Shown in pieces: positions 22,074-35,608 of a DNA stretch of 64,000 nucleotides. Origin of the DNA: Nitrosopumilus sp. (GTDB taxonomy: Archaea; Thermoproteota; Nitrososphaeria; Nitrososphaerales; Nitrosopumilaceae); assembly GCA_965205215.1 (NCBI GenBank), contig OZ242041.1, positions 1,376,001 through 1,440,000 on the forward strand. The letters are read 5' to 3'. Each line of letters opens with the position of its first letter. The first letter of the stretch is position 1. The translations under genes and the position numbers were made by a program. The notes under the pieces were generated by a model. That model ran no database searches. It saw nothing but the letters and a program-made list of their open reading frames with translations, and had not been told where the DNA came from.

Positions 22074-23756
22074 ATGTTGGAGGACAAGGTTCCGGCCCCG
22101 TTCGCGCCGCGCCCGATCCAGAAGCGCATCCTTTCTGAGATAGAGTCGTGCATCGAATCCGGATACCCGAACATCGTACTGTGCGCTCCCACCGGCGTGG
22201 GCAAGTCGCTTGTGGGCGTGACGGTGGCCCGCCACTTCGGTGGCTCGTTTGTGGTTACGGCCTCAAAAAACCTCCAGAACCAGTACGTGGGGGACTTTGC
22301 GTTTCTCAGCCCCGTCAAGGGCAAGTCGAACTTTGCCTGCCACCAGATAATGTCCGAACAGAAGATGGACGACGAGGTGTACGCGGCGCGCAACGGGATG
22401 ACGTGCGAGAAAGGGCGCTGCGTTACAAAAAAGACGGTCGGCGGCAAGCAGATCGTGGACACATGCAAGTTCAAGCCCACGATCAAGCAGGTGGACGAGG
22501 ACGACTGCCCCTCTGAGCCGTGCCCGTACTATGTGCAAAAGTACAGGGGGCTGCTCTCGCCCCACTCCCTCTGGAACTATTCGTCGTATTTTCAGATTAT
22601 AAAGTTCGGGCAGCCGCTGTTCGGCCAGTACCTGGAGAGGCCCGTCTCTATATTCGACGAGGCCCACACCCTGGAGGATCAGATAGTCCAATTCATCGGA
22701 TACGACATAAGGCAGCGGCACCTGGAGGAGGCGGAGATCCACGCCGACCGGTACGACCTTGGGAGCGTGGAGGATACGCTTGAGATCACTACCGAGATTG
22801 CCAAGTACTACTCGGGCCGGATCCGGGACGTGGAGGAGTCGGTATCGCCCGAGTCCCTCCCGGACTTTCGCATACTCAGCCGGCTCCGGTCCATCTACGA
22901 GGAGGCGGCCCATGCAAGGCAGGAGATCTCATCGGACATAGGGAACTTTGTGGTCAACAGGCCCGAGACCGACGCGGACGGCAACATAAGGACCATATCA
23001 ATAAAGCCGATAGACGTCTCGGGCTTTGCCGGGGAGTTCTTCACCTCCAAGCACAACCTGTTCATGTCCGCCACCATCGACAAGCCGAGCTTCTGCGAGA
23101 ACATGGGGCTCGACCCGGGCTCGGTCGCGATCGTGGACGCCCCCGAGTCGCCGTTTCCACTGGAGCACCGCGCCGTGGAGATGCTGCGCGTGAGACACCT
23201 CAACTACCGCAGCACGCCGGCCGACGAGGCGGCGGTAATATCAAAGATAGACGAACTGATGGACAAGCACGCCGACGCGCGCGGACTTGTCCTGACGTCG
23301 TCCGTATCAAAGTGCTACTACATCCTCAAGGGACTTTCAGAGCGCAACCGGCGCCGCGTCAAGATATGCCACAGCACCAACCCCGACGGCAGAACGCAGG
23401 GCGAGATAATAGCCGAGCACAGGGACGAGCCGCGCAGCGTCCTGCTCTCCTCGTCCCTGTGGGAGGGTGTCGACCTCAAGGACGACATGTCGCGGTTCCA
23501 GATAATTGCAAAGGTGCCGTACCCGAACTACTCGGAGGAGCGTACGAGGGCCAAGATGAAAAAATTTCCGCGCTGGTATGCGGCCCGCACGCTGACAAAG
23601 CTGCTACAGGGACTCGGGCGCTCCGTCCGCAGCGAGCAGGACTGGGCTAGGACCTACATACTCGACGCAGCGGCCGACAGGCTGCTGGCCCAGTCCCGGA
23701 ACTCGGTGCCGCTGTCGTATCGCGACATGCTGGGCATGCAGGCGGGGAGCGCGTGA
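22074..23756 (+). CDS. DinG/Rad3(XPD)-family SF2 helicase
   Basis: Q motif, APTGVGKS, KGKSNFAC plus Fe-S cysteines, DEAH, MSAT, WEGVD, QGLGRSVRS; start at ATG 22074. Confidence 0.9.
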   Translation: MLEDKVPAPFAPRPIQKRILSEIESCIESGYPNIVLCAPTGVGKSLVGVTVARHFGGSFVVTASKNLQNQYVGDFAFLSPVKGKSNFACHQIMSEQKMDDEVYAARNGMTCEKGRCVTKKTVGGKQIVDTCKFKPTIKQVDEDDCPSEPCPYYVQKYRGLLSPHSLWNYSSYFQIIKFGQPLFGQYLERPVSIFDEAHTLEDQIVQFIGYDIRQRHLEEAEIHADRYDLGSVEDTLEITTEIAKYYSGRIRDVEESVSPESLPDFRILSRLRSIYEEAAHARQEISSDIGNFVVNRPETDADGNIRTISIKPIDVSGFAGEFFTSKHNLFMSATIDKPSFCENMGLDPGSVAIVDAPESPFPLEHRAVEMLRVRHLNYRSTPADEAAVISKIDELMDKHADARGLVLTSSVSKCYYILKGLSERNRRRVKICHSTNPDGRTQGEIIAEHRDEPRSVLLSSSLWEGVDLKDDMSRFQIIAKVPYPNYSEERTRAKMKKFPRWYAARTLTKLLQGLGRSVRSEQDWARTYILDAAADRLLAQSRNSVPLSYRDMLGMQAGSA

Positions 23757-32721: not shown

Positions 32722-33348
32722 TCAGGCCAGGGTGCGCAGCGCGGAGTTTTTGGCTGCAAGCTCTGCGGCAAACGGATCAGGCCCTGACGCGATTATTACA
32801 ACATCGCCTTCTTGAGGGCCAAGGGAGCCAAGGGTGCGGTGCAGCCCTGCATGGAGCTCAAGCGTACCAGTCTGCTCTCCGGGAAATGAAAAACTGCCAT
32901 TGCAAAAGACAAGCGTCAGTACGACAGAGGCGCCGTACATGATTGCAAAATCTCTCTGCTCAATGCCGGTCCGGACCAGTGAGGCACACCCCCGTACCAG
33001 GACGGCATGCCCATGCAAGTCTCCTAGGATCGCGGACTTTACGGGTACCTCGCACGAGATGACGGCGGCAAGGGATTTTGCCAGTACTGTGCCGTCGGGA
33101 GTAAGGTATGTGCCAGAGCGGATCGAGTCTGCCAATCCGCGTGCCTTGAGCCGTCGTATCATTGTCTTTACCGCGCCCTCGCCAAGATGAAGGGCACCAC
33201 AAAAGGAATTGCGGCTTACAAATCGGTCCTGCTGTAACAGTTGCAGTGCCTTGAAGACGTGCGGCACGCCAAATGTGAGCGGCCTAGTCTGGCCTTTTGC
33301 AGACGCGATATCCTCCAACTGTTTGACATGCTCTGGGTTCTGGGCCAT
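32722..33348 (-). CDS. Winged-HTH protein (DUF4443/DUF2111-like), putative regulator
   Basis: LTFGVPHVFKAL, LHLGEGAVKT HTH, GIEQRDFAI..GA; ATG 33348. Confidence 0.75.
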   Translation of the reverse strand: MAQNPEHVKQLEDIASAKGQTRPLTFGVPHVFKALQLLQQDRFVSRNSFCGALHLGEGAVKTMIRRLKARGLADSIRSGTYLTPDGTVLAKSLAAVISCEVPVKSAILGDLHGHAVLVRGCASLVRTGIEQRDFAIMYGASVVLTLVFCNGSFSFPGEQTGTLELHAGLHRTLGSLGPQEGDVVIIASGPDPFAAELAAKNSALRTLA

Positions 33349-33354
33349 CTTTGA

Positions 33355-33390
33355 TTTATAAATTGGATGTTGTATCCAAGGCTTTAAATA
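33355..33390. promoter_or_regulatory. Divergent promoter: TATA TTTATAAA (33355-33362), palindrome TTGGAT-N5-ATCCAA (33363-33379), TATA TTTAAATA (33383-33390)
   Basis: Read directly between the HTH gene and the cbt genes. Confidence 0.65.
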
Positions 33391-33412
33391 AGTTCCGTAC
33401 AGGGTCGTGCAT

Positions 33413-33568
33413 ATGTCTGGAACCAAAGCAGCAACGACATTCGCGTGTACGGTGTCAAAGTCTGTACCGGTTGCGCTAGCAAGCAACCGTTCGGCCCGTC
33501 TCGGGTTCGGGCACGGATTTGGCCATCCGTTTTGCGGCGTAGGCATAGGGGGCGAACGGTTGCTATGA
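33413..33568 (+). CDS. 51-aa upstream ORF (leader peptide or decayed CbtB-like gene); its stop overlaps the cbtB start (ATGA)
   Basis: MSGTKAATTFACTVSKSVPVALASNRSARLGFGHGFGHPFCGVGIGGERLL; ATG about 23 nt after the TATA box. Confidence 0.4.
   Translation: MSGTKAATTFACTVSKSVPVALASNRSARLGFGHGFGHPFCGVGIGGERLL
33468..33564 (+). promoter_or_regulatory. Candidate structured RNA leader upstream of cbtB
   Basis: 12-bp perfect stem 33482-33493/33553-33564 enclosing hairpins 33494-33512 and 33513-33530; competing stem 33468-33474/33483-33489. Confidence 0.45.
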
Positions 33569-33777
33569 GACAAGAGCAAATAACAAGTACGGCCAGCAAG
33601 CCTCCGGTGCTTGCAATTGCACTGCTTGCTGTCGTCTTTGCGTTCGGCCTATTCGTCGTAGGATTTGACCAAGGACATCTCTTTAGCATAGTCCAGGGGG
33701 CAGAGGCTTTTGATGAGCTCTACCTTCACGAGCTGACCCACGATATGCGACATGCGGCCGGGTTCCCTTGTCATTAG
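33565..33777 (+). CDS. cbtB: CbtB-type cobalt transporter subunit
   Basis: One TM helix, GFDQGH, C-terminal HELTHDMRHAAGFPCH signature. Confidence 0.9.
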   Translation: MRQEQITSTASKPPVLAIALLAVVFAFGLFVVGFDQGHLFSIVQGAEAFDELYLHELTHDMRHAAGFPCH

Positions 33778-33787
33778 GTGGAAGACC

Positions 33788-34525
33788 GTGAAGGCTCTTC
33801 TTTTTGTCTTCATTGTATTGGTTTCTGGGGCACTGGCCGGAACAATTCACGGGATAGCAAACCTTGCAATAGTGGAGCCGTATCTTGACGAGGCCATAGG
33901 AATTGAAAACCAGAATCTCTTTACGTCAGGCGAGGAGGAAGACACGCCCGAATTTTGGACGTCGTACAACGCATATCGCGACTGGCAAAAGGGCGGGCAG
34001 GTTTTGGCCGGCGCAATACTGGGCACGTCCATAGGCGCCCTGTTTGGGATAGTCTATGCGTTCTCAAGACGGGCACTGCCTGGAGATACGGATGTAAAGA
34101 AGGCAGTCCTGCTTGCCGGAATTATGTGGTGCACGCTATATCTGATTCCCTTCCTAAAGTACCCTGCAAACCCCCCGACTGTCGGAGACGGGGAGACTGT
34201 GGTCCTGAGGGCGGTCCTGTACCTGTCTTTTATTGCAATCTCGGGATTTGGCGCAGTGGGATTCTATCAAGTGTACAGGCGCCTGCGACAAAACACCCGG
34301 GTACTGGCATTTGTAGGATACGCAGCATTCATCGGGACGGTGTTTGTCTTAATGCCCGACAACCCCGACGAAGTGACGGCCCCGATGGATTTGGTAAACG
34401 GGTTCAGGGCGGCATCCGTGGTGGCAGTAACCATCTTTTGGGCATCTGCGGCGGTAATTTTGGGCATGTTGTGGCACAGACTACGGCCCGATTCTGAGAT
34501 ATTCTCAAAAAGCCAGAGTGGATGA
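33788..34525 (+). CDS. cbtA: CbtA-type cobalt transporter subunit
   Basis: EPYLDEAIGIE, PFLKYPANPPTVG, FRAAS...FW; multiple TM segments; directly after cbtB. Confidence 0.88.
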   Translation: MKALLFVFIVLVSGALAGTIHGIANLAIVEPYLDEAIGIENQNLFTSGEEEDTPEFWTSYNAYRDWQKGGQVLAGAILGTSIGALFGIVYAFSRRALPGDTDVKKAVLLAGIMWCTLYLIPFLKYPANPPTVGDGETVVLRAVLYLSFIAISGFGAVGFYQVYRRLRQNTRVLAFVGYAAFIGTVFVLMPDNPDEVTAPMDLVNGFRAASVVAVTIFWASAAVILGMLWHRLRPDSEIFSKSQSG

Positions 34526-34575
34526 TTCGCTCCGGCCCGTGGTGCGGCAAGCCTGTGCACAGTTCTGTGCTAGGG

Positions 34576-34844
34576 CCAAAGTAACCGCGTAACCCCGCAC
34601 AAGGCGGCTCGGGGCCAGGCAATCGGTGCTGGCAGGTGCGGCGCGCTATGCGGCGTTCGCGGACGTATTGCTGTTTGCAATGCCACAGAATCCGGATCCA
34701 GAGCCGGGCCTAGACGGCGCCCCGCTTGACGGGTTCAGGGCCGCGCCGATCGCGTCCGCGGCGTCCTTCTGGGCCGCGGCGTGCATGACGCCGGGAACAC
34801 TGTGGCCTCTCCGCAACCGCTGGGCGCCCGTGCAATCCAGTTGA
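34576..34844 (+). pseudogene. Decayed fragment of a second cbtA
   Basis: PK*PRNP (intact LKYPANP) and YAAFADVLLFAMPQNPD...DGFRAA.IAS..FWAA...GTLW align with the CbtA C-terminal half; in-frame stop, frame change and internal deletion. Confidence 0.75.
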
Positions 34845-34913: not shown

Positions 34914-35243
34914 GTGTTGCCAAAATTCACCCTGCCGCAGCTGAAAAAGTACGACGTAAACCAGAAGGTGATTCTGGCGCTCGCCGACGCCGAGTCGAGG
35001 GCCATCCTGTTCTCCATAACCAAAAAGTCAAAGTCCGCGCCGGAGCTTGCGGGCCGGCTGCGCATACCGCTCAGCTCCGTCTACAAAAAGCTGTCCGAGC
35101 TGCAGGCCCTGACGCTGATCGAGGTTGAAAGGACCGTCCTGTCTGACAGGGGCAGGCGGCTGAAGATGTACCGCAGCCGGATCAAGAGGGCCGACATATC
35201 CATAGGCAAGCCCGAGCCCGTGCTTACCCTGGTGCCCAACTAG
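34914..35243 (+). CDS. ArsR-like winged-HTH transcriptional regulator
   Basis: ALADAESRAIL, IPLSSVYKKL, GRRLKMYRSRI; TTAAATA upstream. Confidence 0.85.
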   Translation: MLPKFTLPQLKKYDVNQKVILALADAESRAILFSITKKSKSAPELAGRLRIPLSSVYKKLSELQALTLIEVERTVLSDRGRRLKMYRSRIKRADISIGKPEPVLTLVPN

Positions 35244-35254
35244 GTGCGTGAGAA

Positions 35255-35608
35255 TTGTCAAAGCCCGGAATCATAGAGCTCTCCGAAGTGGACGTCACGC
35301 AGAAGATGATGGAGGCGCTCAGCAACGTCTGCATAAGGTCCGTGCTGTTTGCGGTCCGGGAGCGCTCAAAGGACGCGGCCGAGGTGGCCCGCGAGCTGAA
35401 CCTGTCCGCGTCGACTGTGTACAAGTCGTTTGCGACGCTCGAGTACCTGGCCCTGGCCGAGGTCGACAGGTTTGACATATCGCCGGAGGGAAAGAAGATC
35501 AAGATGTACCGCAGCCGCATAGGCAAGGTGGAGATAACCATAGACGGCCACGAGCCCGTCCTCAACATATACCCGAACACCTCAAACCCAAAGCAAAAGT
35601 CCGGTTAG
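35255..35608 (+). CDS. ArsR-like winged-HTH regulator, paralog of the preceding gene
   Basis: LSASTVYKS, GKKIKMYRSRI. Confidence 0.85.
   Translation: MSKPGIIELSEVDVTQKMMEALSNVCIRSVLFAVRERSKDAAEVARELNLSASTVYKSFATLEYLALAEVDRFDISPEGKKIKMYRSRIGKVEITIDGHEPVLNIYPNTSNPKQKSG

Follow-up and report, generated by a model that had tools for sequence, protein, structure and literature searches.

The cobalt-transporter genes cbtB (33565..33777, + strand) and cbtA (33788..34525, + strand) lie next to each other in the window, by which we mean the whole 64,000-nt stretch of DNA that was analysed and to which all coordinates refer. Both genes are intact, with Pfam matches to CbtB (PF09489, E 6.8e-11) and CbtA (PF09490, E 3.2e-54), respectively. 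A GTG codon was taken as the start of cbtA, and an alternative in-frame ATG is located at 33752. The genome carrying the locus (G000 in the following) consists of a single 2.10-Mb contig with an archaeal SSU rRNA, and as archaeal amoA was found in it (E 2.5e-117), the host is an ammonia oxidiser. Two related species, G155 and G112, were used for comparison.

Upstream of the pair, and transcribed divergently from it, a regulator gene (32722..33348, − strand) encodes a protein with a winged-helix N-terminus and a DUF4443 domain (Pfam, E 3e-23). The N-terminal part gave matches to the Pfam families PH0730-like_N and CggR_N, both under the cut-off, and a literature search on DUF4443 returned no publications. 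Homologues of this regulator adjoin cbtB in many relatives. The spacer between regulator and cbtB is 216 nt long in G000, as compared to approximately 70–100 nt in relatives with an adjacent regulator, an estimate based on tblastn coordinates. Read from its sequence, the spacer contains a first TATA-like box (TTTATAAA, 33355..33362, no strand assigned), which is kept in the intergenic regions of relatives, followed by the palindrome TTGGAT-N5-ATCCAA (33363..33379, likewise without strand), a candidate operator, and a second TATA-like box (TTTAAATA, 33383..33390, + strand). The palindrome thus sits between the two boxes, 202 nt from the cbtB ATG. A scan for bacterial-type promoters gave one sigma-70-like match within cbtB, which is irrelevant in an archaeon.

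The 152 nt directly ahead of cbtB form a leader that is at the same time an open reading frame (uORF; 33413..33568, + strand) of 51 codons and a TGA stop. The stop codon (33566-33568) overlaps the cbtB start codon as ATGA (33565-33568), and the encoded peptide includes the motif GHGFGHPFC, all of which was described in a first-pass annotation of the sequence and is confirmed here. In an alignment of the three species that is gap-free over 33340-33800, the frame is open and the ATGA overlap identical in G000, G155 and G112, and the leader contains no indel; uORF and cbtB are therefore co-directed frames with a 4-nt stop/start overlap in each of them. Other reading frames across the region were rejected. 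An N-terminally extended CbtB beginning at GTG 33445 is excluded by stops in that frame in G155 and G112, and a 101-codon ORF on the minus strand (33384-33689) also has stops in both species. An upstream in-frame extension of the regulator gene (33349-33579) was judged non-coding although no stop interrupts it in any of the three species; it crosses the conserved TATA boxes and the palindrome, differs in 13 residues between G000 and G155, and starts with TTG, for which G155 has CTG.

Just 3' of cbtA, again in all three species, lies a decayed fragment of a second cbtA (34599..34808, + strand) corresponding to about residues 164–230 and scoring 18–37 bits against the profile; in G155 and G112, residues of about 47–77 are additionally retained. 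This relic differs at 43–45 of 206 positions among the species (divergence 0.21), and its alignment has 147 gap columns. The GC content is 0.52–0.53 in cbtB and cbtA, 0.59 in the leader, and 0.70 in the cbtA relic.

Promoter geometry and the origin of the upstream frame

The distribution of the leader was assessed with a 401-nt query (33380-33780) against 151 genomes of the genus. Over the leader, it was matched in three of them, G000 itself, G155 (90% identity) and G112 (89%); the other matches listed all began at query positions of at least 194, i.e. within cbtB. Furthermore, two exact-pattern scans of metagenome contigs, one using the junction and one using the middle of the leader, gave 0 matches each.

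Twenty-nine cbtA loci of relatives were taken, of which 27 were usable (L036 is cut off where its contig ends, and L042 lacks a neighbouring cbtB). In 27 of 27 loci, a TATA-like box ends 20–26 nt upstream of the first codon of cbtB, and exactly 22 nt upstream in 17 of these, which is the spacing of a leaderless mRNA. In G000, the distance from the second box to the cbtB ATG is 174 nt, or 22 + 152 nt, and it is thus the uORF ATG that stands at 22 nt and that has the spacing of a leaderless start. The heptamer ATGTCTG opening the uORF also opens cbtB in 13 of the 27 loci, and the palindrome, which is located 50 nt upstream of the uORF ATG in G000, is found approximately 50 nt upstream of the cbtB start in 14 of them. 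As the 22-nt box spacing of the uORF matches the geometry of cbtB in relatives, the comparison shows the uORF ATG to occupy what would have been the ancestral start position of cbtB. Leaderless transcription has been inferred with GeneMarkS-2 in 11 of 11 Thaumarchaeota genomes, and promoter boxes 22–24 nt from gene starts are described for Halobacterium salinarum in the same publication (PMC6028130). Our literature search on leaderless transcription in Nitrosopumilus and the Thaumarchaeota found no start-site map for the group.

As an alternative to its regulatory proposals, the first-pass annotation had suggested that a decayed copy of cbtB forms the uORF. This alternative is favoured by our results, chiefly from the position of the start codon, the likeness in sequence being weak. 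When the uORF peptide was aligned semi-globally to the first 55 residues of CbtB from 41 relatives, the mean score was 27.7, compared to 11.4 ± 4.0 for shuffled peptides, and the real mean score was attained by 4/300 shuffles for G000, 2/300 for G155 and 11/300 for G112. The uORF peptide resembles the N-terminus of CbtB, but weakly (p about 0.01–0.04). An hhalign comparison placed uORF residues 1–24 on CbtB residues 1–24 with a P of 0.042, and BLASTP gave an E-value of 4.1. A profile made from the CbtB sequences of the 41 relatives gave no signal on the uORF, with 140/1000 shuffles scoring equally well or better. At the DNA level, the leader scored 9 in a local alignment to G000's own cbtB, the shuffle mean being 8.8 and the score being attained by 260/500 shuffles. 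At this level, the idea that today's cbtB was recently duplicated in tandem is rejected, the likeness between leader and gene being that of shuffles, and the short direct repeats observed (D1–D4) are accordingly at chance level.

The ancestry of the intact genes was addressed through CbtA. In a maximum-likelihood tree of 43 rows, the clade of G000 was located within a group of 15 rows with 100/100 support. This group contains no other purP-linked copy, and the remaining 21 purP-linked copies are all found outside it. Where a genome has both kinds of copy, it is the purP-unlinked CbtA that is nearer to that of G000 (5 of 5 genomes), and the identity of PurP to the genus is flat at 70–78%. These comparisons show the intact CbtA to belong, as judged by its sequence, to a paralogous clade that is located elsewhere in other genomes. 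The cbtA relic itself scores alike against the profiles of both paralog types.

Taken together, the position and likeness of the uORF, the cbtA relic, the placement of the intact CbtA among the paralogs and the differences in GC content favour a displacement, in which the resident cbtB-cbtA pair would have been replaced by a paralogous pair and would have left a cbtB stump on the 5' side and a cbtA stump on the 3' side. The scenario falls short of proof, as the cbtA relic fits neither paralog type specifically. Partial duplications in two separate events would fit as well.

Divergence of the leader and of its encoded peptide

The promoter and the leader have diverged to very different degrees among the three species. 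In the promoter stretch (33349-33412), 1–2 of 64 positions differ, and the old promoter is by this comparison strongly constrained, whereas 18–20 of 152 positions differ in the leader. The divergence of the leader is 0.54–0.63 times that of the pooled synonymous sites (p 0.03–0.11), compatible with neutrality and apparently close to neutral. Among near-identical strains in public sequencing runs, the 152-nt leader has 3 SNPs, compared to 2 across the remaining 1249 nt covered (Fisher p 0.011).

The uORF peptide evolves neutrally: dN/dS is 0.96, 1.57 and 0.61 for the uORF in the three-species comparison, and 0.07, 0.06 and 0 for cbtB, of which 0.06–0.07 are the values for G000 compared to G155 and G112. 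That the frame has remained open despite 18–20 substitutions is unremarkable, and by estimate approximately one frame in six would contain 51 open codons by chance at the GC content of the leader. A working small protein, such as a peptide binding metal through His/Cys or a helper resembling CbtB, would agree with a frame kept open in each of the three species, with the presence of GHGFGHPFC and with the leaderless position of the start codon. Set against this are the dN/dS of about 1 and the fate of the motif, which reads GHGFDHPFC in G155, where a glycine is replaced, and GHGFGQPSC in G112, where a histidine and a phenylalanine are. In addition, the stretch aligned to the membrane helix of CbtB, ASNRSARLG, is not hydrophobic. 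The peptide had no match in Pfam (E up to 0.1) and no homologue among the 28–90-residue proteins of a collection of 5.8 billion proteins, and a search of the genomes of 60 relatives gave nothing convincing (best E 0.019). A functional small protein is therefore regarded as very improbable; the best reading, of which this is one part and to which we give slightly better than even chances as a whole, is that the uORF peptide does not itself serve a function.

Folding of the leader RNA and the question of a sensor

The pairing elements described in the first-pass annotation are all present. The outer stem is formed by a 5' arm within the uORF (33482..33497, + strand; core AGCAACCGTTCG at 33482-33493) and a 3' arm (33549..33564, + strand; core CGAACGGTTGCT at 33553-33564), the last base of which is directly 5' of the cbtB ATG (33565). 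The cores AGCAACCGTTCG and CGAACGGTTGCT are perfectly complementary over 12 bp, and the arms extend to 16 nt with 94% complementarity, into a GGGGG tract at 33548-33552. The stem encloses two hairpins (GCCCG/CGGGC, 33494-33512; ACGGAT/ATCCGT, 33513-33530), and an alternative 7-bp helix can form between CGGTTGC (33468..33474, + strand) and GCAACCG (33483-33489). RNAfold reproduced the outer stem and predicted inner hairpins that differ from those first described. In each of the three species, the minimum-energy fold includes a predicted stable helix between the cbtB start region and the upstream coding sequence (z-scores -3.2, -2.1 and -2.8). For G000, folding of a hand-picked stretch of 93 nt gave a z-score of -3.17 (33478-33570); with the leader in full (33413-33580), the value was only -1.69.

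Within the leader, the stem is unlikely to be due to chance, as only 1 of 5000 dinucleotide shuffles gave a perfect inverted repeat of at least 12 bp. Across the entire window, there are 3 such perfect repeats (loops of 3–100 nt) compared to a mean of 0.59 in shuffled windows, and one 12-bp inverted repeat somewhere in a 64-kb window is unremarkable, as 45 of 100 shuffled windows have one or more.

The outer stem persists across the species, its 12 pairs including 3 G·U and 1 A·C in G155 and G112. For the fold first described, with its 23 pairs, pairing holds in 66 of 69 cells over the three species and 0 of 23 pairs show a two-sided change, i.e. the covariation looked for gave no compensatory substitution. 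Substitutions affect 4 of 46 stem positions and 14 of 106 other leader positions (p 0.59), and pairs of the inner hairpins are broken by one species change and one strain SNP. In the alternative 7-bp helix, 21 of 21 cells are paired, and one pair forms the series U-A → U·G → C-G; this covariation was equalled by 338/500 shuffles, there being three sequences only, and RNAalifold can place both changed bases in a small local hairpin as well. With three species, selection on the leader structure is neither demonstrated nor ruled out.

Bacterial cbtAB genes are often under the control of B12 riboswitches. From this background and from the fold, the first-pass annotation had derived a sequester/anti-sequester switch responding to cobalt or B12, or a leader-peptide attenuator. 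The position ahead of cobalt-transporter genes and a fold of several helices by which the start region is masked would indeed suit a new cobalt- or cobalamin-sensing element, as would the frequency of B12 riboswitches on the bacterial genes. However, an Rfam cmscan of 32800-34600 on both strands (E up to 10), which would have included the Cobalamin and NiCo families, gave only an unrelated sR19 match (E 0.72) inside cbtB, and we agree with the earlier observation that the sequence has no B12 box. The annotation had itself named relatives lacking the leader as an argument against a switch, and this is what was found: the leader is missing in 148 of the 151 genus genomes, whose cbtB has leaderless spacing. 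It also derives from coding sequence, or at minimum begins as such, and the absence of compensatory change and the broken inner-hairpin pairs noted above do not suit a maintained sensor. An attenuator fares no better; terminator-like sites were not found in 33250-33850, G112 has an interruption in the T4 run that follows the second hairpin (33530-33533), and the uORF has no run of regulatory codons. Neither proposal is supported, and a riboswitch or attenuator of a new kind is considered extremely improbable.

A translation-sensitive switch without a small-molecule ligand was also considered. Here, the 7-bp helix and the 12-bp stem would be mutually exclusive, and cbtB output would be tuned through them by ribosomes on the uORF, by temperature or by a bound factor. 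The helices are kept in all three species (66/69 and 21/21 cells) and the only double-sided change falls in the 7-bp helix. The same change is, on the other hand, the one equalled by most shuffles and also accommodated by the local hairpin, and in strength the 7-bp helix falls far short of the stem of 12–16 bp. We find such a switch improbable.

Translation of cbtB and comparison with known systems

A Shine-Dalgarno-like AGGGGG (33547..33552, + strand) is located 12 nt upstream of the cbtB AUG and partly within the extended stem. It is invariant in the three species and complementary, with one G·U pair, to the 3' end of the organism's own 16S rRNA (...GGATCACCTCCT). The 12 nt that separate the motif from the AUG make up the stem's 3' arm. 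Apart from this putative site, cbtB seems to have no start signal of its own.

A rival view is that the leader is an inert relic, in which decaying junk without a role precedes a cbtB that is initiated alone, either from AGGGGG or from an unrecognised internal promoter, and in which the stems are accidental products of a pseudogene rich in GC. This is what one might expect of a leader that changes at a near-neutral rate, is enriched in SNPs, has stem positions conserved no better than its remaining positions and shows no compensatory stem change, and an inverted repeat of 12 bp is not unusual in 64 kb; the motif itself could pair with the 16S rRNA. A spacing of 12 nt is, however, long for a Shine-Dalgarno site, and the stem fills all of these 12 nt and, when extended, takes up part of AGGGGG as well. 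An internal promoter finds no better footing, as there is no TATA-like box 20–26 nt upstream of the cbtB ATG, only a CATA 17 nt away, whereas the old promoter is strongly constrained. The frame and the ATGA overlap have furthermore been kept without an indel while the neighbouring cbtA relic is full of them, and a perfect 12-bp repeat is rare in shuffles of the leader itself. An inert leader is thus judged rather unlikely.

The reading that we prefer, and consider somewhat more probable than not, is that the leader is a lineage-specific leftover, the stump of a displaced cbtB, which is coupled to the translation of the present cbtB and is not a ligand sensor. In the common ancestor of the three GC-rich species, an intact cbtB-cbtA pair of another paralog type would have been placed after the front portion of the resident cbtB, and the resident promoter would have been retained with its TATA-like box, palindromic operator and divergent DUF4443 regulator gene. 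Transcription would still start at approximately 33413 from this old promoter, and since the uORF would then be the 5'-terminal frame, it would be translated by default. The present cbtB would have become the second frame on the mRNA, with its start region locked in the 12-bp stem by an arm of the uORF. A ribosome finishing the uORF would melt the stem and terminate on the UGA of AUGA, after which it might reinitiate at the cbtB AUG or leave the path open to a further ribosome. If metal or B12 exerts any control, it would do so through the DUF4443 protein at the operator and not through the RNA.

Translation of cbtB through coupling is on this model the most likely route. The coupled uORF of the first-pass annotation is borne out as far as the ATGA overlap is concerned, which is kept in three species, while its function in coupling is an inference. 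That annotation had also considered that, if the uORF were a decayed copy, the stems would be incidental. They need not be, as they fit the classical layout of an upstream ORF whose translation unmasks a downstream start. A frame and an overlap that are kept free of indels, combined with a peptide that is free to change, are what a coupling role predicts, a pattern of small statistical weight with three species. Co-transcription of the leader and cbtB is weakly supported by a 210-nt contig (33444-33653) that bridges the two. It is the single contig from the one RNA library with part of the stretch, a metatranscriptome library that may include DNA.

The stump might also have been co-opted more fully, such that it makes a message of two cistrons out of a leaderless mRNA and cbtB is made only if ribosomes traverse the stump and melt the clamp, with the competing 7-bp helix, which has the one compensatory change (U-A to C-G), setting how frequently the clamp is formed. 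We hold this to be doubtful at best; if true, it would represent a pseudogene-born RNA throttle on cobalt uptake, acting above the DUF4443 repressor.

On the preferred reading of a coupled stump, one candidate archaeal riboswitch is removed, and cbtBA in this clade instead has leaderless-type promoter spacing beside a divergent DUF4443 regulator and a conserved palindrome, the regulator being a better candidate than RNA for control by cobalt or B12. As a type of feature the leader is nothing unusual, and its evolutionary history is a tidy one. It would provide a compact natural case of a gene displacement that leaves a translated stump ahead of a working gene, a stump that may become needed for the translation of the gene behind it. 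The case also calls for caution, as stable folds that mask a start codon and overlap a uORF can come from gene decay without any role in sensing.

Compared to known systems, the leader resembles the bacterial Cobalamin (RF00174) and NiCo riboswitches in being a structured 5' region ahead of cbtB and cbtA that could mask a start, but differs from them in having no Rfam match, no B12 box and no conservation beyond three species. It is closer to gene pairs in which pairing between an upstream ORF and a downstream start region is opened by translation, as described in a study that also reports termination-reinitiation where a stop codon overlaps a start codon (ATGA) for gene pairs of Haloferax volcanii and Escherichia coli (PMC6728339). 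As in translation-unmasked pairs, the start region is paired inside the upstream frame and has to be opened by a ribosome; here, however, the upstream frame would be a neutrally evolving stump instead of a gene, and the archaeal mRNA is probably leaderless. With the reinitiation cases, it shares the 4-nt ATGA overlap and a Shine-Dalgarno-like motif within the upstream frame, but those cases couple two real genes, often for subunits of one complex, whereas the uORF seems to be a mere path for ribosomes. Finally, a promoter-proximal stump with the old start codon, a 3' cbtA remnant and differing GC contents are features of the remnants left by displacement or partial duplication. Unlike such remnants, the stump would still be on the route of transcription through a working operon, and it ends exactly on the start codon of the next gene.

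A palindrome between the regulator gene and cbtB

The region separating the DUF4443 regulator gene from cbtB contains a palindrome, TTGGAT-N5-ATCCAA, which together with two flanking TATA-like boxes occupies positions 33355-33390 of the window. The palindrome is kept in 14 of the 27 relatives' loci (loci L022-L049), and at loci without an adjoining regulator gene it is often the half-site ATCCAA alone, located before the box, that remains. The palindrome is likely an operator for an uncharacterised cobalt-uptake regulator; no papers on DUF4443 came up in a literature search.

A minus-strand frame of 77 codons (33349-33579), continuous with the regulator gene, stays open across the whole leader preceding cbtB in all three species that share this leader. 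It was considered as a coding sequence and rejected, being judged non-coding: the frame runs over the TATA boxes and is free to change in sequence.

Further features of the window

Two neighbouring small helix-turn-helix genes of similar sequence (34914-35243 and 35255-35608; 109 and 117 residues) lie between cbtA and purP, and their ArsR/TrmB-like Pfam matches are weak and under the cut-offs. At 723-842 and 23418-23461 the window has two further inverted repeats, with perfectly paired arms of 12-13 bp and loops shorter than 100 nt.

Decayed and unusual cbtA and cbtB copies

A decayed second cbtA with a high GC content (0.70) is found at 34599-34808, and such a copy is likewise present downstream of cbtA at two relatives' loci, L052 and L053. 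This remnant carries an internal deletion and differs by numerous indels from one species to another; the related species G155 and G112 retain residues about 47-77 fused to residues about 182-229. The purP-linked cbtA of the relative G032 (L074, G032:C1:1357252-1357958) is in two pieces, one spanning residues 2-111 and the other 104-237, and this genome encodes an intact second copy at a separate site; the split gene is a further instance of the linked copy decaying.

The arrangement at L042 (G023:C57) is unusual, with cbtB located beyond the regulator gene, on its far side. The cbtA-bearing frame of this locus is open over 328 residues, and no cbtB match adjoins it.

The two cbtB paralogs of the relative G034, L024 (G034:C10) and L056 (G034:C11), have an identical C-terminal stretch (IFSVIQGVDAYEELYIHEL...) and differing N-terminal halves, a sequence pattern which suggests gene conversion between them.
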